A stretch of DNA of 64,000 bases. Source: a virus. A model generated the notes under the pieces. The model did not search any database. It was given only the letters and a program-made list of their open reading frames with translations, and was not told the DNA's origin. The position numbers and the translations under genes are program-made. Numbering within the stretch: position 1 is the stretch's first letter; each line of letters begins with the position of its first letter. The DNA lies in IMG/VR virus record IMGVR_UViG_3300037201_000018, positions 1 through 64,000 of that record; one strand, 5' to 3'. Positions 34,796 to 55,381 of this stretch are shown here, piece by piece.

Positions 34796-35227
34796 ATGAC
34801 AGAAGTGATGGACTTCGAGTCCCTAGCCCCGATCGACGTCGAAGTCAAGTACAAGGGGCAGACGCTGACGTTGAGGAGCGCAAACGGGGCAGTCGGTACA
34901 CTCTTCAAAAACAAGATCATCCAGTATGAATCCTGCGACCGGAGGGACATGGCGGACATCCAGCCTTGGCTCGTCTCGGTCTGCCTCTTTCGTCGAGTTC
35001 CTGACCTGGCAATCCCTGGGGATCAGGGTGAACTGGTTCCAGTGTCGGTCGTGAGAACGTTCCCTCATCCAATGCTCAAGAAGCTGTTCGACAAGGCGGT
35101 CGAGATTGGTGAATTGATTCCCGAGGACGAGACGATCGAGTCACTGGAGAAGAAGCTGGCGATCCTTCGGAAGCAGGAGGCGGCGAGAAAAAACGGGCAC
35201 GAGTCTACGGGGACTGGTTCGAGTTAG
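34796..35227 (+). CDS. tail assembly chaperone (G-like)
   Basis: Between tail tube and tape measure; slippery site near its 3' end. Confidence 0.75.
   Translation: MTEVMDFESLAPIDVEVKYKGQTLTLRSANGAVGTLFKNKIIQYESCDRRDMADIQPWLVSVCLFRRVPDLAIPGDQGELVPVSVVRTFPHPMLKKLFDKAVEIGELIPEDETIESLEKKLAILRKQEAARKNGHESTGTGSS
35188..35194 (+). other. programmed -1 ribosomal frameshift site (A AAA AAC) giving the GT-type extended chaperone ending at 35475
   Basis: The -1 frame is open (RARVYGDWFELAAYYG...) and continuous with ORF 35266-35475. Confidence 0.8.
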
Positions 35228-35452
35228 CGGCTTATTACGGCCACTCGGGGCCGATCCACTCGTTCATGAGTTGCATGTCTTACAGGGAGTTCCTGACTCG
35301 CGTCGACCTGATGAACGAAGAGCGTAAACGAGAGAACCAGGGAACTCAACCGAGTCAAGCTCCTCAACTCTCTCCCGAGGAACAAGCGAGACAGTCCAAG
35401 GCGGCTTGGGCAGGGGCGTTGGGAATGACGAAGACTCAAACTGGAGAGATTC

Positions 35453-35833
35453 GTGGGGCACCCCTTGGAAGATAACAAGACTGCGTTCACTGACAAGAAC
35501 AACGCGACGACTGTCCTGAACAGTAAGTGGAGAACTCGCGTAGCAGAGTACAAGGGAGAAACTGAGATGAAGATGAAGGAGTTCAAGAACGGGAAAGAGA
35601 CGTTCAACACGCTCTCCCCGATCCCAGATCAGGACATCCAACTGGGAGACGGGAGAGTCCTTCGAGTCCAAGGTTGGCGACCCAAGGGAGACCCAGAGGT
35701 TTGGTCTCTGGTGAAGATCAAGATCACGGATTACATCTGCATGCCCGAGAAAGAGACGGACGACGACTTCCTTAAGAAAAGCTACGGGATGCTGAGGGAC
35801 CTGGCTCAGAAGAGAGAGGACGAGAGTAAATAA
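35453..35833 (+). CDS. hypothetical protein between chaperone and tape measure
   Basis: AACTGGAG RBS at 35439-46 before GTG 35453. Confidence 0.5.
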   Translation: MGHPLEDNKTAFTDKNNATTVLNSKWRTRVAEYKGETEMKMKEFKNGKETFNTLSPIPDQDIQLGDGRVLRVQGWRPKGDPEVWSLVKIKITDYICMPEKETDDDFLKKSYGMLRDLAQKREDESK

Positions 35834-35835
35834 CG

Positions 35836-38187
35836 ATGGCTGGTGAGACCGAACTCGAAAGATTAGTCGTCCGCCTGACTGGCGACGGTAGCCAGTATAA
35901 GCGGATGTTGGATACGGCGATCTCAGCGACGACCTCCGCGGCCGAGAAGATCGAGCAGTCGACTGAGAAGATGGGCTCCGGGATGGTCGCCAAGGGAGTC
36001 CTCATCGCTGAGGGCGTGACCCTGATGGTTGAGAAGTTCAAAGAATTCGGGAAGGAGGCTCTCTCCGCTTTCAGATCTCACGAGGACGCAGAGTTCAAAC
36101 TGAAGGCGGTGATCGAAGCGAACGGGGAATCTGTCTCCAAGGTAACTGAAGAGTACGAAAAGTTTGCTGACACGATCGGCAAGACAACGACTCACGGTAA
36201 GGTTCAAGTTCTTCAGTTACTTCAGATGGCTGAAACCTACGGTTTGACAGGAACTAAGGCAGAGCAGGCAGTCAAACACGCACTGGGATTCGAGGATGCG
36301 TTAGGTCACAGCGCAGAGGGGGCCTTACGCCTGACTGCGAGACTCCAGCAGGGCAGCGCTGAGATGCTGGGGAGGTTCGTCCCCGGCCTTGACAAGGCGA
36401 CGAGCGAGCAAGCCAAGCTGACTCTCGCGAACGACCGCTTCAACAAGATGTTCAAGGTCTCCGAGTCGTTGACTGAGACGACGACCGGCGCAATTACGAT
36501 GTTCCACAAATCGATACATTCGTTATTTGCGGAGCTGGGGGGACTCGTCGCTCTCGGCCTCAAGCCGATAGTCAAGCTACTCACGGAGGGAATCGACGCA
36601 TTCCAGAAGCTAGACCCAGAGATCAAGAAGGTGACGTCTTCCATCGCCGCGTTCACGGCGGTCACGCTGGCAATAGGAGCCGCAAGTACCTACGCACCGA
36701 TTGTCGGGGCCTTCAAGCTGCTCGGGACGGTAATCGGATTCTTGACAGGACCGATCGGCCTCGTCGCGGCTGCCATCGTGGGGCTTGGATACCTTGTGGT
36801 TAAGCACTTCGGAGGGATCAGCGAGACGTTCACGGCGATCAAGACCAAGTTTGACGAGTTTGCGAACTACGTTCGGCCTGTTACTACGGAGTTGGGTAAC
36901 ATCTTTCGTGTGGTGTGGGACGATATCCTAGAGGCAGGACAGACCACGTTCAATACCCTCTCACTGTTCATCAGCCCGATACTGGCGAAGCTCGGGGTCT
37001 TGATGACTGGATTCTGGGATACGTTCAGACGGGCGTCGATCGAGGCACTCATCGGAGCCGAGTTCGCGATCCGTAACTGGAAGGAGATGCTAGCCCTGGC
37101 AGCGACGTTTGCGCGTCTTAAATTTGAGACGTTCAAGGAAGACGCGAAGTATCTCTTCACTGACGAGATCCCTAACTACCTCCAGAACATGACAGGCGTG
37201 TTTAAAGCTACGTGGAAAGCCGTGTTTGATAGTGCGACGGACGCATTCAATCAGCTCGGAGCAAACTTAGTAAGCATCTCTCTCCACTTGCCGCAGCTGC
37301 TATCGGGCCGGATGGATTTCAGCCAAGTTTGGAATCCGCTAGTTGAGAACTTTGAGATTACGATCCCTAAGATCGTCCCTCTAGCCAAACGCGAACTGAG
37401 TTTCGTCGAGAAGGCACTGACGGCGGCTATGAAGGTGATGGGCGGTGGACTCGCCGCGTCGTTCATGGATTTTCGGGCCAAGCGGGTCGGTGAGTTACTC
37501 TTTCCAGACAAGGCGATCGACGCCGCCGTAGATAAGACGGCTAACAAACTGAATACGGACATCCTCCCAGTCGCGAAGGCGATCAACAAGGAGCTGCGCC
37601 CGCCTGACGTCGTGTTCTGGAGCGCGACTGCGATCACCCACGCGAGGAACCAGCTGTTCGGCCTCGCCAGGACGATCAAGACTGTTCAGACCGTAGGCAA
37701 CGCGACCGTCACCAACGTGGGAGGCGGCGTAGCGGGCCATGCCAGAGCAGCCCCTGCCGCTGTTGGAGCTGCTGCCGTTCACCCCGCGATCGCTCAGATC
37801 GTCCGTGCGGCGGTGGGTGCCTCTGCTGCCCCTGACCTGCCCGTAGAACTTGAAGAGGGTAAGTTCGGAACGGCAAATCTAATTAGCAGCAATCGTAAGC
37901 AACGGCAGCAAGAGTTCCTCCGCAAGGCCGGCGTCGTACCAGCAGGAGCTGCCCCCTCTATCCGACAGGGTCTCATACGTCCTAAATTGCAATCTGGTTT
38001 TGGCTACAAGCAACGTCAGCAAGAGTTCCTCCGCAAGGCCGGAGTCACTCCCGTTACTCCGCCGCCGGGGAGTCTCTCTCCCCAACAGACGACAATGACG
38101 GATCAGTTACTTCAGCAGATCGTGACGTTGCTGAGTGACAAAAACAAGAAGAGGACGCTCGAAGTCAGACCCCTGGGGATAGCATGA
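35836..38187 (+). CDS. tape measure protein
   Basis: ELERLVVRLTGDGSQY N-terminus, long helical Ala/Leu-rich body with a central hydrophobic segment; follows the chaperones. Confidence 0.85.
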   Translation: MAGETELERLVVRLTGDGSQYKRMLDTAISATTSAAEKIEQSTEKMGSGMVAKGVLIAEGVTLMVEKFKEFGKEALSAFRSHEDAEFKLKAVIEANGESVSKVTEEYEKFADTIGKTTTHGKVQVLQLLQMAETYGLTGTKAEQAVKHALGFEDALGHSAEGALRLTARLQQGSAEMLGRFVPGLDKATSEQAKLTLANDRFNKMFKVSESLTETTTGAITMFHKSIHSLFAELGGLVALGLKPIVKLLTEGIDAFQKLDPEIKKVTSSIAAFTAVTLAIGAASTYAPIVGAFKLLGTVIGFLTGPIGLVAAAIVGLGYLVVKHFGGISETFTAIKTKFDEFANYVRPVTTELGNIFRVVWDDILEAGQTTFNTLSLFISPILAKLGVLMTGFWDTFRRASIEALIGAEFAIRNWKEMLALAATFARLKFETFKEDAKYLFTDEIPNYLQNMTGVFKATWKAVFDSATDAFNQLGANLVSISLHLPQLLSGRMDFSQVWNPLVENFEITIPKIVPLAKRELSFVEKALTAAMKVMGGGLAASFMDFRAKRVGELLFPDKAIDAAVDKTANKLNTDILPVAKAINKELRPPDVVFWSATAITHARNQLFGLARTIKTVQTVGNATVTNVGGGVAGHARAAPAAVGAAAVHPAIAQIVRAAVGASAAPDLPVELEEGKFGTANLISSNRKQRQQEFLRKAGVVPAGAAPSIRQGLIRPKLQSGFGYKQRQQEFLRKAGVTPVTPPPGSLSPQQTTMTDQLLQQIVTLLSDKNKKRTLEVRPLGIA

Positions 38188-39359
38188 CCGCGACTGTCCA
38201 AGGTATCCTCTCGTGGAGCGCGTCTGAGAACCAGGACGGGCACAAGGACTACCACATCGTCCTGGAGGTCGAGTCAGCTCTAAATGACGGTCCCGACGCG
38301 ATCCTCAACGCTGCTGGGATGCCGGCGATTGGTGCACCGTACCAAGGTTCTTCCCTGCCAATGGTCGCCAACGGCGGTAGCCCCTCGATAATCAACGACT
38401 TCAACCCTTGGGCCTTCCGTTGGCCGAACTGCGAAGTCAAGATTCACAGCGAGAAGAGCGGAGAGAACACGAAGTGGTACGAGGCGGACATCCTGTTCTC
38501 GACCCGGCCTCTCGAACGGTGCATGACGGCGCTACCAGCGAACCCGATCAGCGAACCTCCCAAAATCGGGGGGTCGTTCACCAAGTTCACACGGGAGGCG
38601 CTGGTCGACCGCTATGGCTATCCAATCCTCAACTCCGCGTTGGAGCCGATAACTGGGCAGCAGGTCGAGAGGGATTACAACACGGCATCGGTTACGATCG
38701 AGATGAACTTCGCCACGTTCGGGGGTGGAACGTGGGCACCGATGATCGACACATTGAATGACTCAACTCTGTGGGGTCTTCCTCCCCGATGCGTCAAACT
38801 GAGTAACGTCAGATGGCAAAGAAAGTTGTATTCACTCTGTACGTTCTTTTACAACTTCACCTACGAGTTCGACATCAACTTTGAGACGTTTGACCGCCTG
38901 CTACCAGACATCGGGACCAAGATCTTGGCTCCGGGTGGCAACGTGTTCAACCCCAGTCACTTCGTCGCCTACCAGGATCTCCAGGGGAACACAGGGACGG
39001 TGACGCTCGACGGTTCTGGTAACCAGTGGACTGGGATCAGTTCTGGTGTAGTTATCGTCGGGTTTTCGGTCAGTACTAACTCCCTAATCTCGACAGCTGC
39101 ACCGCACAATCTATCTATTGGGGATCAATGTATCATCGTCGGGACTGGTGGGACGGTAAACCTCAACGGAACATGGGAAGTAACTGATACGCCTACATCG
39201 AACGAGATCATTATCGATAACCCTTTCGTTCCTTCAGCGACGCTCTCGGCAGCCAGTCAACTTGGTAGCTTTGCCAACTCGACCCTACCCGGATCGAACT
39301 ACGTGCAGTTCTATGACGAATCCAACTTCCTGCTGCTCGGGATTCCCTCCTCTCTCTAG
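38184..39359 (+). CDS. tail tip/distal tail protein with a C-terminal beta insertion
   Basis: First gene after the TMP; VDRYGYPILNSA motif; TAAPHNLSIGDQCII...LNGTWEV beta module. Confidence 0.6.
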   Translation: MTATVQGILSWSASENQDGHKDYHIVLEVESALNDGPDAILNAAGMPAIGAPYQGSSLPMVANGGSPSIINDFNPWAFRWPNCEVKIHSEKSGENTKWYEADILFSTRPLERCMTALPANPISEPPKIGGSFTKFTREALVDRYGYPILNSALEPITGQQVERDYNTASVTIEMNFATFGGGTWAPMIDTLNDSTLWGLPPRCVKLSNVRWQRKLYSLCTFFYNFTYEFDINFETFDRLLPDIGTKILAPGGNVFNPSHFVAYQDLQGNTGTVTLDGSGNQWTGISSGVVIVGFSVSTNSLISTAAPHNLSIGDQCIIVGTGGTVNLNGTWEVTDTPTSNEIIIDNPFVPSATLSAASQLGSFANSTLPGSNYVQFYDESNFLLLGIPSSL

Positions 39360-39369
39360 CGAGCGAACG

Positions 39370-39837
39370 ATGAAAGGTGAACAGCTGCCAGACACGACCT
39401 ACCCAGCTGACGGGAGACTGAGGAACAACGACCGACTGACAGTGATCACCCAGATCCATCACGACCACACCGGAAGACCGACGTTCAGTGGCGACGTTAG
39501 ATTTGACAGACTACTAAGAACGACTGAGCAGCCGCTCCATCGGGAGATCGAGATCGGTGAGGAGCCAACTCAGCTGGAGACCCACTGGATGAAGGAGGTC
39601 GGCTACGTCCTGATCCACAACATCACTGGATCAAACTTCCAGATACATCCATCGAAAGCCGAGAAGGAAGACAACGAGAAGCGAATCGTCAAGGTGACGT
39701 TCGGACTTGACTGTGTTAAGGGCCTCCTGTTTCCTCCAGGGACTGGCTACCCGATCGAGGTTGAAGACATCACCAGCGTCTACCTGAGGAGCCTGTACAA
39801 AAAGGCCCTCGTCAACGTCTACCTTTTCCCAGCCTGA
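39370..39837 (+). CDS. hypothetical tail-region protein
   Basis: ATG at 39370 after the upstream stop; beta-rich. Confidence 0.5.
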   Translation: MKGEQLPDTTYPADGRLRNNDRLTVITQIHHDHTGRPTFSGDVRFDRLLRTTEQPLHREIEIGEEPTQLETHWMKEVGYVLIHNITGSNFQIHPSKAEKEDNEKRIVKVTFGLDCVKGLLFPPGTGYPIEVEDITSVYLRSLYKKALVNVYLFPA

Positions 39838-39845
39838 AGTAAACT

Positions 39846-42281
39846 GTGACCGAACCTCTTCATTTCTTGACTGAGCAGGACCGGCAGAAGCTGGTCGACA
39901 CGATCGACCAAGCGAAGAAGCTCCGTGTCAGCAAGCCAGTCATAAGTAAAGATCCAAAGCTCGCCGTCGCTCAGGACGTCTACGTCGCCCGAGTCCCCTG
40001 CGGTCTCCAGATCCCTGCGAGCACGGCGACTCAGCCGGGATACCTCGACTGCTGCATCTTCAAGATCACGTGGCAGACCGACATCAACAATCCCACGATG
40101 GTCTACCAGCCACTCCTGAACCCCGATGGTTCAGCGGTGCGGGAGCGGGTCTACAACATCTACGACGTCCCAGTATTGGACTGTCAGTACATCCAGATCT
40201 ACAAGACAAAGGACGGACACTTCGTCAACGAGAACCCGGATTGGATGGACTGTCCTAACAATCCCGCGAGTACGTCATCAACCAGCTCAACTTCGAGTTC
40301 CACGACGACGGTCGCCCCGCAGAACACGTCAACGACGACTCCCAACCCGAACTATGCCTACTGCGCAGGAGTCTGCCAGTGGGTCTGGAGTGCCACAAAC
40401 AAAACCTGGAGCGTCACGAGCAGCACTTGCTACATAGCAACGACGACCAGCTCGACGAGTTCTAGCAGCACCAGCAGCACGAGTACTAGCTCGACTAGCA
40501 GTACATCTAGTACGAGTACGACTAGCAGTACATCTAGTACGAGTACGACGAGTACCTCGACGACGACTCCTTGTCCCTGCCCGACGACGTCAAGTTCCAG
40601 TTCGAGTTCTACATCGTCGACTAGCTCTAGCTCGACGTCATCGACATCTTCAACTAGTACGACGTCATCCACGACAACGAGCAGCACGACGACTCCTGCC
40701 CCCTGTCAGTGTCTCTATCCAACGACCTGTGGGACGAACGACGGGGACTGCACGACGACGTACTGCTCGACGGGGATCAATCAGCCCCCGAGCTGCGGTC
40801 AGTCGACGACCAGCTCATCCTCAACGACCTGCTCGCCCTGTCAGTCTTGTGCAGCTACGTCGACAACGCCATCGCCTGGAGGTGGAGGTAGCGGAAATAA
40901 CTGCGGTAACTGCATAGCGACTTGTTTGGGAGTCGTGGCTGGGACGTGTAACGACAAGGCAGGAACTTGGACGTTAACGACTGGATGCATCTCACCAACC
41001 GGGTGCGGTTGCCCACTCTTCGGTCAGAACTTCGTTCCTGGGATCATCGGAACACCGTGTAGCACTAACGGTGCCACGATCTCGATGGTATGCATCACTG
41101 GGGAGACTATCCCACCTGGATCTAGCAGCAGCGGACAGTGTTGCTACAGTTGGACCGGATCGGCGTGGCAGTACAAATCTACCGCATCGACTCCCTGCGC
41201 CGTTTCGGGAATTGTGACTTCTGGCCTTACCTGTCAACCTCCATCAGCCCCCGGCGGGACTGTCTGCGGTATATCTTGTACGCCATGCGTGGCGGCGGGA
41301 GGAGGTGGTAGCCCAGGCAATCCAGCGACTACCCAAGCTCCATGCTGCACCGGATACTCTGGCCCCGTCTGCGGGGGCGTCCCTCAGACCTCAACGACAA
41401 CTACGACTGCCCAGCCTTGCGGGACCGGCTGCTCCTACAGTTACACTACCAGTACCTGGTCTCTCGTCTCGAACAACTGCGGTCCCTGTTCTTGCGTCGC
41501 CCCAACTGGAACTCCGAGTCCTGCCTGTGCCGCTGGCTCAAATATCCAGGTAATGCCCTGTGGTCCCCAGACGTCCTCGACAACTACCACAACGACTACG
41601 ACGACTACCACAACGACTACGACGACTACGACGACTACTACGACCACGACGACTACTACGACCACGACGACTTGTGCTCCAAATGGGTGCGTCCCAATAG
41701 CAACAGGATGCCCAAGTAGTGGAGGAGTTTGTGCAATTTATTGTGCAAATGGATGTGGAGGAGGCGGTCCCGGTTGGTATGGCCACGCTGAGGGTGCCGG
41801 ATGTGCATCCAGTTGCGTTGTATATTCTCCCTCTCCTGGAAATTGTGTTTATCAGGCATGCGGCCCCGGCTGCCCCAATAATTTACCATCAAGCCCAACT
41901 GATGGGCAGACCGTTTGTGGAGGATGCATTCCAGGCGGCATTTCGTCACAGAATTCTTGCTTTGGTGCCATGAGTGGTTGCACTACCTGCAACACCACCA
42001 CGACAACTACAACGACCACCACTACCACGACGACGACGACCACAGCTGCTCCTTGTCAGTGGCAATGCTGTGAACCGGGCAAAGACAACCCTTACGGCTG
42101 GCAGCTGCTGAGCACCACCTGCGGAGGAGGATTCGCGTGTCTGCCACCTGCGACGGTCTGTAATGCTGGCACGGCGAACTGCCTAATCGCCACAAACAGT
42201 TGCGTCCCCAGCAGCACGCCAGGGTCGACAAACACGCCCTCCGGGTACACCAGCTGTAGTGGTGGTGGAGTCTGTAGTTAA
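39846..42281 (+). CDS. mucin-like Cys-rich, poly-Thr/Ser tail-associated protein
   Basis: Long S/T tracts, runs of 31 and 17 Thr, and many Cys-rich modules with WxW...W...C motifs; last gene of the tail module. Confidence 0.75.
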   Translation: MTEPLHFLTEQDRQKLVDTIDQAKKLRVSKPVISKDPKLAVAQDVYVARVPCGLQIPASTATQPGYLDCCIFKITWQTDINNPTMVYQPLLNPDGSAVRERVYNIYDVPVLDCQYIQIYKTKDGHFVNENPDWMDCPNNPASTSSTSSTSSSTTTVAPQNTSTTTPNPNYAYCAGVCQWVWSATNKTWSVTSSTCYIATTTSSTSSSSTSSTSTSSTSSTSSTSTTSSTSSTSTTSTSTTTPCPCPTTSSSSSSSTSSTSSSSTSSTSSTSTTSSTTTSSTTTPAPCQCLYPTTCGTNDGDCTTTYCSTGINQPPSCGQSTTSSSSTTCSPCQSCAATSTTPSPGGGGSGNNCGNCIATCLGVVAGTCNDKAGTWTLTTGCISPTGCGCPLFGQNFVPGIIGTPCSTNGATISMVCITGETIPPGSSSSGQCCYSWTGSAWQYKSTASTPCAVSGIVTSGLTCQPPSAPGGTVCGISCTPCVAAGGGGSPGNPATTQAPCCTGYSGPVCGGVPQTSTTTTTAQPCGTGCSYSYTTSTWSLVSNNCGPCSCVAPTGTPSPACAAGSNIQVMPCGPQTSSTTTTTTTTTTTTTTTTTTTTTTTTTTTTTTTCAPNGCVPIATGCPSSGGVCAIYCANGCGGGGPGWYGHAEGAGCASSCVVYSPSPGNCVYQACGPGCPNNLPSSPTDGQTVCGGCIPGGISSQNSCFGAMSGCTTCNTTTTTTTTTTTTTTTTTAAPCQWQCCEPGKDNPYGWQLLSTTCGGGFACLPPATVCNAGTANCLIATNSCVPSSTPGSTNTPSGYTSCSGGGVCS
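41580..41672 (+). repeat. (ACN)31 poly-threonine codon tract
   Basis: 31 consecutive Thr codons using ACG/ACT/ACC/ACA; a second 17-codon tract at 41994-42044. Confidence 0.95.
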
Positions 42282-42293
42282 GGAATCCGTAGG

Positions 42294-42746
42294 ATGAGAA
42301 CTCTGCCGACGATCACCGCTGCCCAGCTGCTGGGGTTCGGTCCCTGTGCCGAGTATCTGAAGGGCGGCAAGCGAGAGAGCGTCATCAGCCAGTCGCCTGA
42401 GTGGGACGCTAGGGGACTCCTGTCGTTGGACATCCCAGACGACCACAAGTTGTGGGCGGTCCTGAGACTCGAACTGCTACCGCAGGACTTGCTGGATAAC
42501 TGCGTCAAAGCGATCCACGCGGACTATCCCGAGCTGAGAGGCGAGATCGTTCCCCCAGCCGGCAGTACCTACGAGCAAGACCGAGATGTCATCCTCTCCT
42601 CACTGAAGAAGAAAAAGTATCTCTCCGCCTGCGTCCACTGCACCCAACTGGCGAGACTGATCCCCCGCAACCGTAACGTGCGGCAGGAACTGGCGAGGCA
42701 GGTCGAAGTGATCAAGCAGCAGGTCCAGAACTGGATAGATGATTAA
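42294..42746 (+). CDS. hypothetical protein
   Basis: 150-aa ORF linking the mucin-like gene and the glycosyltransferase cluster. Confidence 0.55.
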   Translation: MRTLPTITAAQLLGFGPCAEYLKGGKRESVISQSPEWDARGLLSLDIPDDHKLWAVLRLELLPQDLLDNCVKAIHADYPELRGEIVPPAGSTYEQDRDVILSSLKKKKYLSACVHCTQLARLIPRNRNVRQELARQVEVIKQQVQNWIDD

Positions 42747-44655
42747 CCCCTCTCAAACTGGAGTGACAGAAGTGCCCAAACTGACGATCGGGATGGCCCA
42801 CCACGCGGACGTCGCGAGATTAGAGTCTACAGTTCAGTCTTTGAGACTGCATCACGCGGTCGACTGGAACTTTGAGATCGTGATCGTCGACAACTCGGCG
42901 AACCTCCCCTGCACTCAGGACCTCGTCAACTTTATCAACTCGGCGACGTCTCACGATCGCTGCGTGATCAAGTACGTCCCCATGACCGATCCCGTCGGTA
43001 CGAGTCCCACGAGAGACCTGATCTTCCAGATCGCGACGGGCGACTTCGTGCTCGTGATGGATTGCCACGTCATGCTTGACAAGGATGCCATCTCTCGTCT
43101 CTTGAAGTTCTACTCTGAGCATCCCAAGACTGACGACCTCTACTCTGGTCCCTTACTGACTAACGACTTGAGAACCTCGTGGACTCACTTCAACGACCAG
43201 TGGCGGGCGGAGATGTGGGGAACGTGGAGTACGGCCTGGATCTGTCCCTGCGGAGGAACGCGGTTCTCCACGCTCGACATGGGGACCGGTAAGATGATCC
43301 CGATCGCCCTGACGATGGGAGCGGTCAAGATCGACGGCTGCCACTACTGCGGCAAGCAGTTACCCAAGGACGGTCCCTGGAACGGTCACGAGGACTACTT
43401 AGAACGACAGGGTTGGATTCCTCTCGGGAGAGATCCCGACGAGAAGCCCTTCGAGATACCGGGCCAAGGTTTGGGACTCTTCACTTGCCGTCGGGAGTCG
43501 TGGCTCGGCTTCAACAAGGATTCGAGGTTCTTCGGAGGCGAGGAACTCTACATCCACCAGAAGTACAGGAAGGCTGGGAGAACCTGCTGGTGTCTGCCCT
43601 TCCTCCGCTGGTGGCACGACTTCTACAAGGACCCCAACAAGCCAACTTACACCAATACGACATGGAACAAGTGTCGGAACTACGTATTAGAGTCTCAAGA
43701 GTTGGGCGAGGAGTGGATGCCGCTGCTCGACGTCAAGAACCACTTCATCGGGCAGAACAACTTCACGGAGGCCCACTGGAACAAGCTGATAGCCGATCCC
43801 GTCAAGAGGGTCAACGAGAGCGACTGCCCTGGCTGTCAGGCGGCTCAGGCTGCCATGATGATCCAAGACGATCCTCAGATCAAGACCCTCGACGACGCAT
43901 TCGACGTCGTCTCAAAGATTCCCCGTGACATGGAGCAGCACATGCCCAAGCTGCGGGAGCTGGCAGCCGACGTCTCGCACGTGACGGAGATCAGTCACCG
44001 GCGGGAGGGGACGATCGCGTTCCTGGCTGCTCGACCCAAGTTCATCAAGTCCTACAACCTAGAGCCAGCTTCCCCTCAACTCAGCAAACTCGCGAAGGAG
44101 GCGGGAGTCTCGCTAGACATCCAAGCCCCCGCCGACGGTTACGTTAAAATAGAACCGACGGATCTGCTCTTCATCGACGACGTCGAGACGTATGAGAGAA
44201 CCAAGCAGCACCTAGAGAGACTGTCGGGCTCAGTGAGTCGCTACATCGTCTTCCACGACACGATCTTCGCCCCTCCGATGATGCAGGCGATCAGGGAGTT
44301 TCTGTTCGTCAATCGTCAGTGGTCGGTCATCTACCACACGGTCGAGGAGCACGGGCTGACTGTCCTCGGTTGCAGAGACGAGGACAAGCCAAAGCTGCCG
44401 CCCTTCACCGACGAGCTGAAGAATGTCACCCGGAGCATCTGGAAGGCGGCGACGAACTACGTTAAGGGAGGGCAGACGAACGTCGAGCCTGAGGTCTATG
44501 AGAAGCGACTCTCGATCTGTGCGACCTGCACCCAGCGAGTCAACGACCGCTGCGCTGCCTGCGGGTGCCGCATCGAACTCAAGGCGAGCTTGGCAACGGA
44601 CACCTGCCCCCTCCTCTACTGGCCCCTACTGAATGCAGAAGGGAAGGTAGAATGA
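42739..44655 (+). CDS. GT-A glycosyltransferase (ppGalNAc-T-like motifs) fused to a methyltransferase-like domain and a C-terminal Cys-rich domain; possible start GTG 42772
   Basis: EIVIVDNS, ATGDFVLVMDCH (DxH), GLGLF, FGGEELYI, LRWWH; DLLFIDD...IVFHDT; RLSICATC...RCAACGC...CPL. Confidence 0.75.
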   Translation: MINPSQTGVTEVPKLTIGMAHHADVARLESTVQSLRLHHAVDWNFEIVIVDNSANLPCTQDLVNFINSATSHDRCVIKYVPMTDPVGTSPTRDLIFQIATGDFVLVMDCHVMLDKDAISRLLKFYSEHPKTDDLYSGPLLTNDLRTSWTHFNDQWRAEMWGTWSTAWICPCGGTRFSTLDMGTGKMIPIALTMGAVKIDGCHYCGKQLPKDGPWNGHEDYLERQGWIPLGRDPDEKPFEIPGQGLGLFTCRRESWLGFNKDSRFFGGEELYIHQKYRKAGRTCWCLPFLRWWHDFYKDPNKPTYTNTTWNKCRNYVLESQELGEEWMPLLDVKNHFIGQNNFTEAHWNKLIADPVKRVNESDCPGCQAAQAAMMIQDDPQIKTLDDAFDVVSKIPRDMEQHMPKLRELAADVSHVTEISHRREGTIAFLAARPKFIKSYNLEPASPQLSKLAKEAGVSLDIQAPADGYVKIEPTDLLFIDDVETYERTKQHLERLSGSVSRYIVFHDTIFAPPMMQAIREFLFVNRQWSVIYHTVEEHGLTVLGCRDEDKPKLPPFTDELKNVTRSIWKAATNYVKGGQTNVEPEVYEKRLSICATCTQRVNDRCAACGCRIELKASLATDTCPLLYWPLLNAEGKVE

Positions 44656-44728
44656 CCCATGTTCACTGACAATACTCCGTGGGATCATGCGGGTTGGGGC
44701 GGCGTAATCGTTCTCGCAGGTTTTAAGG

Positions 44729-45022
44729 ATGTTAAACTCTAAAGAACACGTATGTCATCACTGTGATAATCCGCCATGTTGTAATCCAAAGCACCTGTTT
44801 CTAGGTAACGATAAATCTAATCGCCGAGACGCTACGTCTAAATTTAGAACGGAGCACGGAGAGGATCATCACTTCGCAAAGATAACTGAGAGGGATGTAC
44901 TGGAGATTAGAAAATTGGGGGCTGCTGGATCACACCGCCACCGGCAATTAGCTGAGATGTTTGGTATTAGTATTTCACAAATTGTCTCGATAATCCACCG
45001 AAGGTTTTGGAGGCACATATGA
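44729..45022 (+). CDS. HNH homing endonuclease (short, possibly N-truncated)
   Basis: VCHHCDNPPCCNPKHLFLG..KSN plus C-terminal HTH; AT-richer than flanks. Confidence 0.75.
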   Translation: MLNSKEHVCHHCDNPPCCNPKHLFLGNDKSNRRDATSKFRTEHGEDHHFAKITERDVLEIRKLGAAGSHRHRQLAEMFGISISQIVSIIHRRFWRHI

Positions 45023-45813
45023 GAAGTAACCCATTTATTGCGTGCTTGTGTGCAACTTACAAGAGACCGACTTGCCTGGCGAACGCGGTCGCCTGTTTCT
45101 TGGCTCAGGAGTACGAAAATAAGGTATTGGTGATCGTAGATGACGCCGCGCAATACAACCCACGTGAGTACGATTGGAAGCAACCCAAGAACATCCTGAT
45201 GATCTCTTGGCAGCAGAGAGGACCGAGCCTCAGCGAGAAACGAAATGAAGTAGCTAGGATCGCTAAGGACGGATATGAACCAGAGATCTTTGCTGTTTGG
45301 GACGACGACGACGTTTACCTCCCGAATCATCTCAGCAACATAGCCGCGGGTTACGAGCGAGGGGGAGAGTTCTTCCTTCACAAGAAGGTACTGACGACCT
45401 ACGACTGTGGAGAGACCGGAAAGACGGTTTTAGAACAGGCGGTGTATGAAGTCGCCGGTCCCTGGGAAACCCGGTTCCATTCCTCCTGGGCATTCACGCG
45501 GGAGCTGTTCGAGCGAGTCGGGGGTTATCCCCCTCCTATGCCTAACGGGCAATACGATGATTTTGAGACTCAGCTCGGAATAAACCTAAAGCGAGTCGGT
45601 AAAGTAGAATATATCGACGGCGATGGACCGAGTTACGTCTGCCGGGTGTTCAACCAAGCCGAGTACCACTTGACGCAGACGGACGGGAAGAGCTACCAAG
45701 AGAACTGGGAAAGGATCGGCAAGTTGCCATCTCCGTTCGTCGGCGAGTTAGTTCCAAAGATGGACGACTGGACCAAGCGACTGTACGTGAACTTAACTGG
45801 AGTAAAAGCGTGA
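45019..45813 (+). CDS. GT2-like glycosyltransferase
   Basis: LCATYKRP, FLAQEY, LVIVDD, SLSEKRN, VWDDDDVYLPNHL. Confidence 0.85.
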   Translation: MRSNPFIACLCATYKRPTCLANAVACFLAQEYENKVLVIVDDAAQYNPREYDWKQPKNILMISWQQRGPSLSEKRNEVARIAKDGYEPEIFAVWDDDDVYLPNHLSNIAAGYERGGEFFLHKKVLTTYDCGETGKTVLEQAVYEVAGPWETRFHSSWAFTRELFERVGGYPPPMPNGQYDDFETQLGINLKRVGKVEYIDGDGPSYVCRVFNQAEYHLTQTDGKSYQENWERIGKLPSPFVGELVPKMDDWTKRLYVNLTGVKA

Positions 45814-46631
45814 GCGACGAGCTTCCTTTCGTATCGTGCTTGTGCCCTACCTATCGTCACCCAAAGCTACTGGCCAACGCCGTCGCCTGCTACCTCTCGC
45901 AGGACTACCCGTTGGAGAGGCGAGAGCTGATCATCCTCGACGACTACGGCCAATACGAGAACAAGAGCTACGACGGTTACCAAGTCGTCTCCGTCTCTCG
46001 TCGATACGTTTCGTTCTGGGAGAAGCGGTGTGCGACAGCGGCTCTCGGGAGGAACTTGGGAGAGAACAAATCCCCAGACGTCTACTGTGCTTGGGACGAT
46101 GACGACGTCTACATGCCGTGGCACATCACAGCCCACATCGAGGCGCTGAAAGTCAGACGGCGGGGTAGGGACGCTGTTGCCTACTCACATCCCATGAAGA
46201 TATTCAGCACATATGGGCGAGTCTTACATGAGGAAGACGGTCGAGGTCGGTTTGAGGGTTCTTTCGCATTCACCCGAAGAGCCTACGAGAAGGCCGACGG
46301 CTGGCCAGTCACCAAGCGGGGAGGGGGTGACCAGATATTCATCGGTCGACTGGAGAAGGCCTGCGGAGGAAAGATCGACGACCCCTGCGAGGGATATGCC
46401 CCCAGCTACGTCTACCGTTGGGAGTCTACGAACAGTAATCATTCATCGGGGTACCATAAGTCGTTTGACGACGAGGAGTGGTATGATCGCTACGCGAGAG
46501 AGGCGAACTTCGACGACGAGGGGGCCAGCAGGATCGTCTTACCCCAGTTCGATGCGGAGACGAAGCAGATCTACAGTCTAGTCGATCAGGAGAAAGGAAT
46601 CGGCCTTGAGACACATCAGATACAGAGTTGA
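45810..46631 (+). CDS. GT2-like glycosyltransferase (paralogue of the preceding gene)
   Basis: VSCLCPTYRHP, YLSQDYP, ELIILDD, AWDDDDVYMPWHI. Confidence 0.85.
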   Translation: MSDELPFVSCLCPTYRHPKLLANAVACYLSQDYPLERRELIILDDYGQYENKSYDGYQVVSVSRRYVSFWEKRCATAALGRNLGENKSPDVYCAWDDDDVYMPWHITAHIEALKVRRRGRDAVAYSHPMKIFSTYGRVLHEEDGRGRFEGSFAFTRRAYEKADGWPVTKRGGGDQIFIGRLEKACGGKIDDPCEGYAPSYVYRWESTNSNHSSGYHKSFDDEEWYDRYAREANFDDEGASRIVLPQFDAETKQIYSLVDQEKGIGLETHQIQS

Positions 46632-47008
46632 CCCCGACGTCGAGATCAGTCGGGTCCTCAACCAACTCTTGGACTACTATGACGATAAAAAGTACGAGGA
46701 ACACCAGATCGAGAGGGCCAAGCGACCGCCGATCTACGAGAAGAGGCATGAGTACGGATGTTATCTTGACACTGGAAAGCCTCTCTCCGAGGAAGATCGC
46801 GAGAACTTGAGAAAAGAACTGGCAGGCGAGATCAGAGGAGACATCGACGAATGAGTGAACCTACCCACTACCACTGCCCCTACGGACACGAACATCCTCA
46901 ACCGTGCGAACTGGAAGACGGCAGGGTCATCTGTCGGAAGTGCTTGTACGACGACGGCGTAGAAGTTGAATGCATTCTATGTACGCCAGAGACCTGCGGA
47001 GAGCGAGC

Positions 47009-51059: not shown

Positions 51060-51824
51060 ATGGACTCGGACTTCCCCAGTGCGATGCTCCCCGAGATCGA
51101 GGAGTTCCTCTCGAAAGACAGCGAGAGAGAATCTGGACTCGATCTCTACCCAGGCGTCTTCGACACACAGCACTTCTTCCCGCTTCAGAGGAAGGAGGAG
51201 CTGAAGAAGATGATCCAGACGGCTCGGAAGGTCGAGCCGAAGGTCATCATGGAGATCGGAGCAGATAAGGGGGGAGGACTGTATCACTGGTGTAAGTGCT
51301 TCCCCAGCGTCGAGAGAATCATTGGATGTGAGATACGAGGGACACCGTACTCCAGCCTCTTCGAGCGGTCCTTTCCGAATGTCAACTTCCTCTGGCTGCC
51401 GGTGAGCAGCTACGACAACAAGACGCTGAACGCTGTTCACAGGTGGCTCGGCGAGGAGAGACCCGACAGGCTGAAGATCGACGTCCTGTTCTGTGATGGC
51501 GAGAAATCGTACTTCAAGAAGGACATCGACGCCTACCTACCCTTCATGTCCCCGAAGGGGGTTATGTTCCTGCACGACATCACGGACTGGGATGGTCCCC
51601 CGCAGGCGTTCGAGTACGCCCAGAGTCTGGGTTTCAGGACCGAGACGATCATCGACAAGTCAGACACGATGCAGTCGCTCGGGAGGGCGATCCAGGGTCA
51701 GGCAGCGACGACTCCCTACGAGAGCTGGCTACGGCACTGGGCCGGGACCTCGTGCGGGGTCGGGGTCGTCTGGATGAGAGAATCTCAATTTACTGTCAAC
51801 GAAAGGAAGTTTAGAGATGAGTAG
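51060..51824 (+). CDS. class I SAM-dependent methyltransferase (Methyltransf_24-like)
   Basis: IMEIGADKGG, IDVLFCDG, GVMFLHDI. Confidence 0.75.
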   Translation: MDSDFPSAMLPEIEEFLSKDSERESGLDLYPGVFDTQHFFPLQRKEELKKMIQTARKVEPKVIMEIGADKGGGLYHWCKCFPSVERIIGCEIRGTPYSSLFERSFPNVNFLWLPVSSYDNKTLNAVHRWLGEERPDRLKIDVLFCDGEKSYFKKDIDAYLPFMSPKGVMFLHDITDWDGPPQAFEYAQSLGFRTETIIDKSDTMQSLGRAIQGQAATTPYESWLRHWAGTSCGVGVVWMRESQFTVNERKFRDE

Positions 51825-51961
51825 CGGCAAACCAGTTCTACAGCCTCAGCCGACTTGCAAGCATGAGTGGGAGATCTCCCGCGTGAGGGTCGGCATCAAC
51901 AAGTATGAGACCCGACATACCTGCAAGAAATGTGGGGAAACTAACCCACCAGGAAAGTAGA

Positions 51962-52852
51962 ATGGCTAAAGAGTGCAAACTGATAGGACAAGTTGGAGGA
52001 GTTTATCAGATTAGAAATACCTCAAACCAAAAAGCCTATGTTGGATCTACGAAGTGCTTTACTGGTAGATGGAAGACGCATAAGATCGCCCTTAGAAACG
52101 GCATTCACCCTAACAGATATCTGCAAAACGCTTGGAACAAGCACGGAGAAAAAGCATTCAAATTTGAGATCCTTATTAAATGCCGCTCTAGCTTGTGCTT
52201 GAAAAATGAGCAGAAGTGCATAGACGAAAGGACACTTAAAAATCTGTACAATCTTGCTCCAAAAGCTAACGGCGTTTTTGGAATCAAATGGTCAGAAAAA
52301 TCTAAAGAGGCTTTTCGGGCACGTTGGAATGAAATTTACTTAACTCCTGAATATATTCAGCACATGAAAGCTATCAAATTCGGAACAAAACGGTCAAAAC
52401 AAGCCATAGAAAAACACAAACTGTGGATGAGTAAAAACCGAGCCAAACTCGGAGCAGCTATTAAGCGGGGTCTTGCCAATCCCGAGGCCAGAAGAAAAAT
52501 GCGTGAGGCAGCTGCCAGACGTTGGGCATCGCGTAAGGCTGAGATTGCTAAAGTCAACGCAAATAATCGCAAAAATATAAACCCAGCGGTGTCAGAAGGT
52601 GCCAAGAGGGGCTGGATTACTAGAAAAGCTAATTACGGGACAGATGGGGGAGTCTCTGGGAAAATAGCAAATAAAGCTTTAATAACCAGAAGACAGAGAT
52701 ATGGCCCCAGTGGAAGGTCTCCAAGAGCAGCGGCCGAACTAGAGAAGCATCGAAAGCAGGCAAAATTGAGGAAAGATAAATTCAGGAAGGAACTGGCAGA
52801 AATCTATGAAAATATTCTCACGAAAAGACGAAAAACCAACACCAGTATGTGA
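51962..52852 (+). CDS. GIY-YIG homing endonuclease (Seg/I-TevI-like)
   Basis: GVYQIRNTSNQKAYVGST, RWKTH, LQNAWNKHG, EQKCID, YNL; basic C-terminal repeats; AT-rich. Confidence 0.85.
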   Translation: MAKECKLIGQVGGVYQIRNTSNQKAYVGSTKCFTGRWKTHKIALRNGIHPNRYLQNAWNKHGEKAFKFEILIKCRSSLCLKNEQKCIDERTLKNLYNLAPKANGVFGIKWSEKSKEAFRARWNEIYLTPEYIQHMKAIKFGTKRSKQAIEKHKLWMSKNRAKLGAAIKRGLANPEARRKMREAAARRWASRKAEIAKVNANNRKNINPAVSEGAKRGWITRKANYGTDGGVSGKIANKALITRRQRYGPSGRSPRAAAELEKHRKQAKLRKDKFRKELAEIYENILTKRRKTNTSM

Positions 52853-53280
52853 ACATCTATGGGTCAAGAAGTGTACTGGCGGAGTCTGTCAGGTCGTCTG
52901 CGTCCTCTGCGGTCAGAAGGGAACTAACGCCAGTTTACCCAAGATAGACCCAAAAGTGTTAGAGACTGTACGTAATCATCTAGGACCTTCAAAGTGAACG
53001 AGCAAGTGAGAAAAGAACGAACGCTGTCAGATGAAGAGTTAGGTGCAATTGAATTTCGTGTCAACGGTTGGTTGCCAACCGATCCAGATTACGCAACAGA
53101 GGGGATGATCTCCCAAGAGATCCCGCTTCTCATCAGTGCATTACGTTCTACGAGAAATGCGCTCCGACAACAAACGGGACTCGTCGAGAACGCTCGTAAA
53201 GTTGTGGAAGAAGGACAATCTTGGTCGTTCTTTGAATTAGAAGAAGCTCGCCAAATCCTCCGAGCATTGGGAGAGGACAA

Positions 53281-53871
53281 GTGAATGACCTGACCAAGAA
53301 GCTCGTTGAGATGTTCCCCAACGGCGGGTACTTCGTCGAGGCAGGGGCACACGACGGGATAGGCGACTCCCAGACCTATGAGTTAGAGCAACTCGGCTGG
53401 AACGGCCTCTGCGTAGAGCCCTCGTCAGCGTTCCACGGACTAACCGAGAGCCGCAGGTGCAGGCTAGACAACCGTTGCCTGTGGGACCACAACGGATTAG
53501 CTCCATTCACAGAGATCTCCGGAAATGACATCGAGCTAAGTGGTATCTCTGGGTCATTCAACTACGACGAACACGGCCGAGATAACCTTTCTAGCTATGT
53601 CAGCTTAAAGCAGGCGGTCACTCTTACCGCGATGCTCAAGGATCACGACGCTCCCTCAGTCATCGAGTTCCTGGCATTGGACACTGAGGGATCAGAATTG
53701 GCGATCCTCTCGGTTCACGACTTCGAGCGGTATCGGTTCCTGTTCATGGAGATCGAGTACCACACGGACAAGAGACGCGAAGAACTGACTCAACTACTTG
53801 TACCGAAGGGATACCAACTCCACTCTGACGACGCGGTAAACTTGTTTCTGACCTACGGAAGGGAGATATAA
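53281..53871 (+). CDS. FkbM family methyltransferase
   Basis: YFVEAGAHDG, GWNGLCVEP, IEFLALDTEGSELAIL. Confidence 0.85.
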   Translation: MNDLTKKLVEMFPNGGYFVEAGAHDGIGDSQTYELEQLGWNGLCVEPSSAFHGLTESRRCRLDNRCLWDHNGLAPFTEISGNDIELSGISGSFNYDEHGRDNLSSYVSLKQAVTLTAMLKDHDAPSVIEFLALDTEGSELAILSVHDFERYRFLFMEIEYHTDKRREELTQLLVPKGYQLHSDDAVNLFLTYGREI

Positions 53872-53877
53872 TAGAAA

Positions 53878-53945
53878 TTGCGTGGCTAGGGTCGCTCCTG
53901 AAAAGCAGAAACCTCGCTGCCTGCCACGTAACTTTTTAATTGAGG
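53878..53945 (+). promoter_or_regulatory. structured leader (three-way junction) upstream of the HNH gene
   Basis: ttgcgtggc/gccacgtaa outer stem; internal agg...cct and gcag...ctgc hairpins; TATAAT at 53867. Confidence 0.45.
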
Positions 53946-54617
53946 GCTACTGGGGGAGTAGAAAACGTGACAGAGATTAAGGACATTAAAGGACAGCGGT
54001 TTGGCAAGTTGGTAGTCTTAAGCTATGTCGGACAGAACAAGTTCAGGAAGGCCGAATGGAGGTGCCAATGCGACTGCGGTAAGACTACAGTCACAACAGG
54101 AGGCGGATTAAGGTCAGGCAATACAACTAGCTGTGGCTGTTACCAGAGAGAAGCTAACAAAACCCACGGTGAGTCACGAGTCAACAGTAAGGAATACAAA
54201 GCTTGGGGCGAGATGTTGAGCCGATGCCGGAACTCAAACGGGAAGGCATACCACAACTACGGCGGTCGGGGAATCAAAGTCTGTACTCGTTGGTTGTTAT
54301 TTGTAAATTTCCTAGCTGACATGGGCCGTAAGCCAACTCCTCAACACAGCCTTGATCGTTATCCAAACAACAACGGCAACTATGAACCCGGAAATTGCCG
54401 ATGGGCGACCAAAAAGCAACAGGACACGAACCGCAGACAGACGCGACTGCACACATTCAATGGTGAGACGCTATGCGTTAAAGACTGGGCTAAGAAATAC
54501 GATCGAAGCTACGACGTGCTACTGAAAAGAATCCAGTCTGGATGGGACTTCGAGAAAGCCCTGATGACTCCCTACAAAAAATACAAACTAAAAAGAAAGG
54601 AGGTGCACAATGGCTAA
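53940..54617 (+). CDS. HNH-type homing endonuclease (GQRFGKL...CDCG family); start may be GTG 53967
   Basis: GQRFGKLVV, WRCQCDCG, SCGC, YGGRGIKVCTRW, SLDRYPNNNGNYEPGNCRWAT. Confidence 0.85.
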   Translation: MRATGGVENVTEIKDIKGQRFGKLVVLSYVGQNKFRKAEWRCQCDCGKTTVTTGGGLRSGNTTSCGCYQREANKTHGESRVNSKEYKAWGEMLSRCRNSNGKAYHNYGGRGIKVCTRWLLFVNFLADMGRKPTPQHSLDRYPNNNGNYEPGNCRWATKKQQDTNRRQTRLHTFNGETLCVKDWAKKYDRSYDVLLKRIQSGWDFEKALMTPYKKYKLKRKEVHNG

Positions 54618-55381
54618 TCCAATGGTGTTTAAGCATATCGAGCTGGAAATACTAACGGCTTGCGATTGTGCCTGCTTTTGGTTGTGATCGAATGAGCGAC
54701 GTCACCAACGCACCGAACATGACGATCGAACAGGTCAAGCTGTTCGTCGACGAGAGCCTTGAACTCGACTGGGAGTGGGAGCGTATTCGATTGCTCGGGG
54801 GAGAGCCTACTCTACATCCCAAGTTCCGTGAGATCTGCGAAGAGCTGATTCGTTACCGTACCAAGTTCCCTGGCGTCTTCCTTCAGGTCCTCAGCAACGG
54901 ACTCGGCAAGTTAGCCCAACACCAGGACTGGCTCGTCGAGAGGAACATCGACCCACACGTCGAGGCCAAGAACAAGACCGTCCAGCCTCACTGGTTCGTC
55001 AACACGAGGATCGTCCCTCTCGACAGAGACCCCGACTGCCCCGACCTACCGCCGTGCGGGATCTTCGGCGTTAGGGGCTGTGGGATCGGACTGACGAGGC
55101 ACGGATACTTCCTCGATGGTGCTGGGGCCTCGATCGCTCGTATCGCTGGGTTCAACATCGGAGTCCAGCACCTCAAGAACGTCACGATGGAGGCCATGCT
55201 CGAACAAGCCAAGCCAATCTGCAAGCGCTGCGGACACTGGAACGACCAAACGCCAGGAGTCCCATCAGTGACCAAAAAAGTTTCGGAGACCGGGATGACG
55301 ACTGGGGCCTTCTGGACAGAGACCCTCGCGAAGTACAACAAGGAGAAGCCAGTCCTGACCGTCTACGGGAGCGACAGATGA
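54610..55381 (+). pseudogene. radical SAM protein with a +1 frameshift inside the CxxxCxxC motif
   Basis: ATG 54610 frame gives MANPMVFKHIELEILTACDCACFWL*; removing one T of TTTT restores CDCACFGCDR in frame with LLGGEPTLHP and VLSNG. Confidence 0.7.

Follow-up and report, generated by a model that had tools for sequence, protein, structure and literature searches.

What does a phage-encoded glycosyltransferase modify when its gene stands beside the only mucin-like open reading frame (ORF) of the genome? This question is raised by a locus in the IMG/VR virus record IMGVR_UViG_3300037201_000018, which has 94,383 bp and is rated 100% complete. The first 64 kb of this record were analysed and are called the window below. 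The gene in question (P0001; 42739..44655, + strand) is open throughout and encodes a three-domain enzyme of 638 amino acids (aa) from the ATG at 42739. With a probability of about 0.6, we consider this enzyme to be a cytoplasmic polypeptide O-glycosyltransferase that resembles the families GT27 and GT60 and is dedicated to the adjacent mucin-like tail-region protein.

Motifs and fold of the glycosyltransferase domain

The ATG at 42739 and the stop codon of the ORF before it overlap. An alternative start, GTG at 42772 with GGAG 8 nt upstream, yields 627 aa, and a 100%-identical database protein (P0004) has exactly this length, i.e., the GTG 42772 start. The domain content is the same whichever start is used. 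An earlier note, made from the letters of this DNA alone, had described a DxH metal motif followed by GLGLF, FGGEE and WWH, a Zn-ribbon-like insert, a methyltransferase-like domain and a C-terminal cysteine cluster, and all of these are present. A script check of the translation placed MDCH at aa 107-110 (D108 = nt 43060), and GLGLF begins at aa 244 (nt 43468), FGGEE at aa 265 (nt 43531) and WWH at aa 291 (nt 43609). The insert motifs are CPC at aa 169 and CHYC at aa 201, and the cysteine cluster consists of C594, C597, C605, C608, C610 and C623 and matches Pfam DUF6171 (E 1.8e-8). A fold search with the methyltransferase-like domain led to cation-dependent O-methyltransferases. Thus, the fusion of a glycosyltransferase to methyltransferase-like and Cys-rich domains is confirmed by Pfam, by fold matches and by the Pfam matches of relatives.

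Conservation was counted in an alignment of 67 relatives with 37-64% identity to the query, to which all such counts below refer. D108, H110, F265, G266, E268, E269, H273, W291, H293, C594, C610 and C623 are invariant (67/67), and G244, G246 and F248 are also invariant. D108 and H110 belong to the DxH metal motif D108-C109-H110 (43060..43068, +). The segment from GLGLF (aa 244-248) to FGGEE (aa 265-269; 43468..43545, + for the whole segment) is the counterpart of the Gal/GalNAc-T motif of GT27, GGLFA...WGGEN, and H293 in W291-W292-H293 (43609..43617, +) is the candidate C-terminal metal-binding His (C-His). The CPC...CHYC insert of ~50 aa, which is Zn-ribbon-like, lies between DxH and GGEE (43234..43383, +) and was modelled by AlphaFold2 as beta-hairpins. 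Its cysteines are kept in 45/67 (C169), 41/67 (C171), 57/67 (C201) and 48/67 (C204) of the relatives, and some relatives lack the insert altogether (their profile matches come in two stretches). The spacing between F265 and H293 is 28 aa, equal to that between W359 and H387 in snail polypeptide GalNAc-transferase (ppGalNAc-T). The spacing between H110 and F265 is 155 aa, compared with 105 aa (H254-W359) in the snail enzyme. This excess is due to the ~50-aa Cys insert, and the spacing equals that of GT27 once the insert is removed.

Structure prediction revealed a GT-A glycosyltransferase domain at aa ~12-358 (42772..43812, +), which is GT27-like by structure. The AlphaFold2 model of aa 1-365 has a predicted local distance difference test score (pLDDT) of 93 and a predicted template modelling score (pTM) of 0.92. 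When this model was compared with the PDB by Foldseek, all of the matches listed (to rank 50) were ppGalNAc-Ts, including T1, T2, T4, T7, T10, T12, PGANT9 and TgGalNAc-T3, with E from 5e-12 to 1e-9 and template modelling (TM) scores of 0.48-0.57 by query. VIA-align, a structure search of 48,161 chains that is independent of Foldseek, ranked mouse GalNAc-T1 (Z 22.3) and Toxoplasma TgGalNAc-T3 (Z 21.8) at the top, over 263-264 residues with a root-mean-square deviation of 3.3-3.4 A. Below GT27 came the chondroitin polymerase K4CP (18.7), WrtF (18.1), B4GALNT1 (17.8), RmlT (17.4), TarS (16.5) and SpsA (16.3), with ordinary GT2 enzymes at Z 16-17. In a structure search of the ESM Atlas, five of ten rows were eukaryotic ppGalNAc-T-type clusters with TM scores of 0.64-0.67; three of them are named ppGalNAc-T, one is inactive-like and one has the same Pfam set. 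Two bacterial GT2 clusters in the Atlas scored alike (0.64-0.65) and one scored higher (0.73). A published GT-A phylogeny places GT27 and GT60 in one clade with GT7 and chondroitin-synthase-type GT2 enzymes (PMC7185993), and the ranking in our structure searches mirrors this phylogeny. According to the same work, DxH instead of DxD is restricted to GT27 and GT60 (PMC7185993), and DxH is described elsewhere as the GT27 variant of the DxD metal motif (PMC11074326).

Sequence comparisons gave a more divided picture. Pfam Glycos_transf_2 (PF00535) matches aa 28-132 with 37.1 bits against a cut-off of 23.3, and 67/67 relatives match it. The PF00535 model covers 96-100% of the members in ppGalNAc-T clusters as well, and therefore it cannot separate GT2 from GT27. 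The enzyme itself found no match among PDB sequences by phmmer. A profile of the whole family matched only bacterial GT2 enzymes in the PDB (TarP, E 4.8e-7, and TarS), on the nucleotide-binding half alone. A profile restricted to the glycosyltransferase domain found ppGalNAc-Ts in addition (E 0.0074-0.9), ranked below the bacterial GT2 enzymes that matched the N-terminal half. They were the only PDB glycosyltransferases that matched the C-terminal subdomain, and they did so weakly (GalNAc-T10, E 0.0074; TgGalNAc-T3, 0.099; T7, 0.11; range 0.0074-2 with the next profile included). A profile of aa 222-330 is in register with GalNAc-T7 and TgGalNAc-T3 in that GQGLGLF aligns to AGGLFA, FGGEE to WGGEN and WxH to VGH, with H293 at the histidine of the GT27 VGH; the RN-to-RN register is found with TgGalNAc-T3 only. 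Taken together, structure prediction and PDB comparison favour GT27 over ordinary GT2 and the motifs are in register, in agreement with the GT27-like signature that had been suspected from the letters.

Conserved pairing with a Ser/Thr/Cys-rich protein

The candidate acceptor (P0002; 39846..42281, +) is an 811-aa protein that combines poly-Ser/Thr tracts and Cys/Trp modules with an N-terminal domain. It consists of 20.8% Thr, 15.2% Ser and 8.8% Cys and has Thr runs of 31 and 17. Its ORF reaches at least 60% Ser/Thr within 30 aa, as no other in the 94-kb genome does. Small Cys/Trp modules (C..W.W....W.....C, CxC and CC pairs) are repeated between the Ser/Thr tracts at 40350-42281 (+), and these may serve in binding, with disulfides or metal as stabilisers. 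The partners have in common an N-terminal domain of ~135 aa (encoded here by 39846-40280, +), which is kept in at least 27 related loci. It has the pattern PC..IPA..PG..CC.FK ... VYNIY ... K.G.W.NERP and showed no PDB, Pfam or PHROG match. Presumably, this domain anchors the mucin-like region to the tail. No signal or transmembrane segment was found in the enzyme or in the Ser/Thr-rich protein, and the Kyte-Doolittle (19) maximum of the enzyme, 1.48, peaks within the beta-strand of the DxH core. Since neither protein has such a segment, any modification would occur in the host cytoplasm.

The pairing of the two genes was tested in 72 fetched loci, each with an upstream flank of 3 kb or more. 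A partner was defined as an adjacent same-strand ORF with at least 40% Ser+Thr per 100 aa and at least 4% Cys. Such a partner was present in 54/72 loci, always upstream and 420-1,985 aa long, compared with a background of 8/475 among other ORFs (>=300 aa) judged by the same Ser+Thr and Cys thresholds. The remaining loci mostly miss the thresholds narrowly, and nearly all loci are paired under looser ones. The upstream ORFs are most alike in their Cys content (6-14%), even where the Ser/Thr maximum is below 40%. The pairing is present in loci from Planctomycetes genomes (L084, L087 and L089, which are prophage-like), in short contigs of metagenome-assembled genomes, and in all three domain architectures of the family described below, including the form that has the glycosyltransferase domain alone. 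Therefore, the link to the poly-Thr neighbour, which the earlier note had drawn from a single locus, is supported both by very strongly conserved gene order and by the neighbour being the genome's only mucin-like ORF. Two loci (L017:4955-8835 and L018:5067-8821) have two tandem Ser/Thr/Cys-rich ORFs of ~625-655 aa each upstream of the glycosyltransferase gene.

A tail tape-measure protein is encoded nearby at 35836..38187 (+), where 14 PHROG families match, 12 of them annotated as tape-measure (best E 1.4e-18). This places the locus of the enzyme and its partner in the tail module. The tape-measure gene is followed by two unassigned ORFs, the Ser/Thr/Cys-rich ORF, a 150-aa ORF and the enzyme ORF, in this order. 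The 150-aa ORF (42294..42746, +), whose stop overlaps the ATG of the enzyme, matches no Pfam or PHROG family. It is missing from most related loci, and the Ser/Thr-rich ORF there directly abuts the glycosyltransferase gene.

Fused domains and proposed role

The middle part of the enzyme, aa ~380-555 (43876..44403, +), is a class I cation-dependent O-methyltransferase-fold domain with EISHRREGT as motif I. The model of aa 350-638 has a pLDDT of 89, and Foldseek matched its middle domain to SafC, a CCoAOMT-like enzyme, Rv0187, SpnH, MycF and MeT1 (E 3e-6 to 3e-5). SpnH, MycF and MeT1 are sugar O-methyltransferases. The middle domain of the enzyme itself has no Pfam match at E<=1; among the relatives, RMNT_CmcI (rhamnosyl O-methyltransferase/CmcI) matches 34/67 and Methyltransf_24 matches 33/67. 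In a profile match to the O-methyltransferase 4pca (E 0.009), the Gly loop is seen to be replaced. In this alignment, the ribose-binding acid after strand 2, E442 (kept in 60/67), and the metal-ligand positions D480 (63/67), H506 (55/67) and D507 (51/67) fall on the corresponding positions of 4pca. The family consensus of motif I is E-F-S-K-R-R-E-S-T, with the loop S-x-R-(R/K)-E-S, and this enzyme has E-I-S-H-R-R-E-G-T; in this region R421 is invariant and E423 is kept in 62/67. Because this motif is non-canonical, we set aside as unproven the notion that the middle domain is a plain active S-adenosylmethionine (SAM) methyltransferase. A separate Methyltransf_24 protein of the phage (51060-51824) has the canonical EIGADKGGG, unlike the degenerate loop of the enzyme.

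Two cysteine-bearing elements flank this domain. The linker between the glycosyltransferase and methyltransferase-like domains contains a CPGC knuckle (43825..43836, +) with C363 (57/67) and C366 (60/67), which may complete a metal site with other cysteines. The C-terminal part, aa 581-628 (44479..44622, +), is a six-cysteine DUF6171 domain (PF19668, E 1.8e-8; PHROG 13558, E 3.5e-12). It matches with 35.1 bits against a cut-off of 27, 65/67 relatives match as well, and each of the six cysteines is either invariant or kept in 66/67. Elsewhere, DUF6171 is found mostly in small stand-alone phage proteins, and a literature search found no paper mentioning it. The relatives show three architectures: the glycosyltransferase domain with the methyltransferase-like domain and DUF6171, the same two domains with a different Cys-bearing tail, and the glycosyltransferase domain alone. 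Relatives such as L066:9992-12016, L028, L030, L039, L084 and others lack DUF6171 and carry another conserved C-terminal segment of ~110 aa with the pattern GPGTE..LGI..P.C.CN..A..MD.WGVE.C...I..W. Accordingly, the accessory Cys domain appears to be interchangeable. A preliminary quick tree of the relatives, rooted at midpoint only, shows several exchanges of the C-terminal module, with the forms that have the glycosyltransferase domain alone nested within the fused ones.

We propose that the soluble enzyme is active in the cytoplasm of the host during late infection. Its GT-A domain would bind a nucleotide sugar via a divalent metal held by D108, H110 and H293, and would transfer the first sugar to Ser/Thr hydroxyls of the poly-Ser/Thr tracts in the 39846-42281 protein, in the manner of GT27 and GT60. 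In this reading, the acceptor would be a peptide and the donor might be GalNAc. The O-methyltransferase-fold domain would most likely methylate the attached sugar; alternatively, it could be a non-catalytic docking module, if its odd loop no longer binds SAM. DUF6171, a predicted zinc-type domain, would be an exchangeable accessory. The glycosyltransferases and methyltransferases encoded downstream would probably extend and tailor the glycan, and the end product would be a mucin-like, protease-resistant, extended tail appendage.

Several observations weigh against this proposal. At the sequence level, GT27 is matched weakly (E 0.0074 to 2) and over one subdomain only, and the N-terminal half has its nearest matches in TarP and TarS, two enzymes of wall teichoic acid. 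The same GT-A clade also contains an enzyme of polysaccharide synthesis, chondroitin polymerase, with Z 18.7. PF02709 (Glyco_transf_7C) matched neither in this genome (E<=10) nor in the 67 relatives (E<=1). An invariant Glu follows GGE (GGEE) where GT27 has Asn (GGEN). This final Glu occupies the catalytic-base position of inverting GT-A enzymes, so that the enzyme could be retaining or inverting and may differ from GT27 in mechanism. In the middle domain, motif I (E-x-G-x-x-x-G) lacks both glycines family-wide. As for the acceptor, its putative virion role is deduced from gene position, and its N-terminal domain matches nothing known. The enzyme is not a classical GT27 member, since a lectin domain, a membrane anchor and a PF02709 match are all missing and GGEE stands in place of GGEN. 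Where a lectin domain might be expected, its C-terminal half consists of the O-methyltransferase fold and DUF6171.

These points bear on what else the enzyme might do. It could act on another acceptor, such as an envelope glycan of the host, a free polysaccharide or an intermediate linked to lipid, and so serve surface conversion or exclusion, its tail-side position being a common cargo site. The nucleotide-binding half, which is nearest by sequence to TarP, TarS, heparosan synthase and PglI-type enzymes, fits such a role, and chondroitin polymerase is the third-ranked structure behind two GT27 chains. A 16-kb block of glycosyltransferase and methyltransferase genes lies downstream, as in glycan-building islands, and relatives are also encoded by elements integrated into Pirellulales genomes, a setting in which conversion genes are often found. 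We nevertheless regard this as unlikely, since the pairing with a Ser/Thr/Cys-rich ORF survives deep divergence, domain swaps and losses, GT27 stands clearly above polysaccharide enzymes in both Foldseek and VIA-align, and the enzyme lacks the membrane segment of GtrB- or synthase-type enzymes. Moreover, DxH is not the motif of polysaccharide GT2 enzymes (PMC7185993). A peptide-bound acceptor is also assumed if the enzyme extends a glycan on its neighbour after an island glycosyltransferase or a host enzyme has added the first sugar, and if its methyltransferase-fold domain then caps the chain, much as A064R of a chlorovirus does. Downstream genes encode at least three further glycosyltransferase candidates, the invariant Glu in the position of the catalytic base suits an inverting enzyme that extends chains (GT7 or chondroitin synthase type, of the same clade as GT27), and there is a precedent for a glycosyltransferase fused to a sugar methyltransferase that elongates and caps (PMC7826918). 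Still, the best structural matches are initiating polypeptide transferases, and this enzyme is the sole glycosyltransferase that is always next to the Ser/Thr-rich ORF, with which even the form having the glycosyltransferase domain alone remains paired (in loci not surveyed for other glycosyltransferases). A role restricted to elongation is therefore quite unlikely in our view.

The high Cys content of the upstream ORFs raises another thought, namely S-glycosylation of cysteines in the Cys-rich modules instead of Ser/Thr, the reaction carried out on glycocins by the GT2 enzymes SunS and ThuS. Cysteine at 6-14% is the property that varies least among these ORFs, and SunS has the same fold (Z 13.5 in VIA-align). 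However, SunS is far below GT27 in that ranking, nearly all partners carry Ser/Thr tracts, and the regular spacing of the cysteines suggests disulfide or metal-binding modules; we consider this very unlikely. Phage glycosyltransferases are classically DNA-modifying, as stated in a review (PMC12619734), and sugar transfer to modified phage bases can be imagined here too. But the gene sits in the tail module and not in a replication module, the conserved protein partner points to a protein acceptor, and the nearest folds are protein glycosyltransferases, all of which leave this almost no weight, although no search aimed at base-hypermodification genes was made.

Among known systems, the GT27 enzymes (mouse GalNAc-T1, 8v9q; human GalNAc-T2, T7 and T10; Toxoplasma GalNAc-T3) are the best structural matches and share the GT-A catalytic fold. 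DxH and the C-terminal His serve as metal ligands in GT27 and are predicted to do so here with equal spacing, the GGLF...(W/F)GGE...H subdomain is in register, and a dense Ser/Thr acceptor, here a candidate, is paired with the enzyme. GT27 enzymes have a ricin-type lectin domain and a type II anchor and work in the Golgi lumen, whereas the phage enzyme lacks both and is cytoplasmic. It also differs in its 50-aa Cys insert, in GGEE, in the fusion to the methyltransferase fold and DUF6171, and in sequence, with 14-17% identity. A different comparison is offered by the serine-rich-repeat adhesin loci of Gram-positive bacteria, in which GtfA/GtfB and accessory glycosyltransferases glycosylate an adjoining Ser/Thr-repeat protein in the cytoplasm. 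There, too, a dedicated glycosyltransferase cluster lies beside a Ser/Thr-repeat protein, but the initiator is a GT-B (GT4) pair, the loci are cellular and export machinery is included, unlike in the phage locus.

GT60 comprises polypeptide alpha-GlcNAc-transferases (acting on Ser/Thr or Hyp) of the Trypanosoma and Dictyostelium type. It combines DxH with O-glycosylation of Ser/Thr in polypeptides as GT27 does, and is likened here by description (PMC7185993); none of the structure searches brought up a GT60 structure. In mycobacteriophages, capsids and tail tubes are glycosylated (Freeman et al. 2023, as cited in PMC12619734). There, glycosyltransferases of the phage reportedly act in the host cytoplasm on structural proteins of the same phage, and the glycans are located on the C-termini of capsid and tail-tube subunits (PMC12619734). 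The candidate acceptor here is a dedicated mucin-like Cys-rich protein, and the enzyme is GT27-like, fused to two further domains, and found with probable Planctomycetes hosts. The chlorovirus PBCV-1 protein A064R (two glycosyltransferase domains and a methyltransferase, 638 aa) is multidomain, too, and has a virion protein as its target, to which it adds a sugar that it then methylates (PMC7826918). It elongates N-linked glycans of a capsid protein with rhamnose in a eukaryotic host and differs in domain order and families; again, the likeness is by description (PMC7826918).

If the proposal is true, phages build their own mucin-like glycoproteins. To our knowledge, virus-encoded glycosylation of virion proteins is known from few systems, such as mycobacteriophages and chloroviruses, and mucin-type initiation by DxH GT-A enzymes is, as far as we know, regarded as a eukaryotic trait. 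The activity, if confirmed, would also have a bearing on how GT27 and GT60 arose. Glyco-engineering would gain compact polypeptide glycosyltransferases that are cytoplasmic and need no lectin domain, and there would be a first molecular clue to the way in which phages deal with the unusual Planctomycetes envelope. A wider idea, which we offer only tentatively, is that the family (at least 1,292 clusters at 50% identity) is a prokaryotic-virus branch of the GT27/GT60 clade in which true mucin-type initiation on poly-Ser/Thr in the bacterial cytoplasm and O-methylation of this first sugar by one polypeptide yield a methylated mucin-like coat on a tail appendage of Planctomycetes phages. In that case, animal-type, polypeptide-initiating O-glycosylation would have a large undescribed counterpart in phages, possibly with deep roots among them.

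Spread of the family and genome setting

A scan of IMG/VR revealed 442 viral contigs that encode a relative of the enzyme, and a profile search of 1.84 billion representative proteins gave 1,292 clusters (50% identity) at E<=1e-30. No INPHARED phage gave a tblastn match to the enzyme, and literature searches on phage GT27 and on glycosylation in Planctomycetes phages found no relevant paper and no publication describing the family. All genome matches on long contigs are from Pirellulales or Planctomycetia, and one homologue (P0025) is in Bremerella volcania. The host of the phage is thus probably a member of the Planctomycetes. Among the sampled Pirellulales genomes, 8/201 carry the gene, and this sporadic distribution is as expected of a mobile element. 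The gene pairing recurs in viral contigs and in prophage-like regions of Pirellulales genomes.

In the window, the + strand carries nearly all large ORFs. A block of glycosyltransferase and methyltransferase genes spans ~16 kb downstream of the enzyme and forms a glycan-tailoring island. Its first gene encodes a second GT2-family glycosyltransferase (45007..45813, +; Pfam PF00535, E 1.1e-7), and two unassigned ORFs and then a weak GT-B-like match follow. Farther downstream are the canonical Methyltransf_24 with the intact SAM loop mentioned above (51060-51824, +) and a GIY-YIG endonuclease ORF (51905-52852, +; Pfam E 1e-7). The latter is probably a homing-endonuclease insertion, and it adjoins the stretch of lowest GC content in the window (52001-54000; GC 0.474 vs ~0.55). 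The island continues with an FkbM methyltransferase (53281-53871), a radical SAM protein (54668-55381), a Methyltransf_23 (55571-56149) and a further GT2 (56080-56721). At its end, a 535-aa ORF (56896-58503, +) matches Pfam Intein_splicing over aa 91-354 (E 1.7e-10) and appears to be an intein-interrupted gene.

A promoter and terminator scan of 35000-47000 found fewer sites than in shuffled sequence, and the scan is therefore uninformative on operon structure. Upstream of the tail genes, at 25068-26468 (+), a 466-aa ORF has a weak thioredoxin-like match (Pfam E 3.4e-4, under the gathering score); its product could be relevant to the handling of a Cys-rich virion protein.

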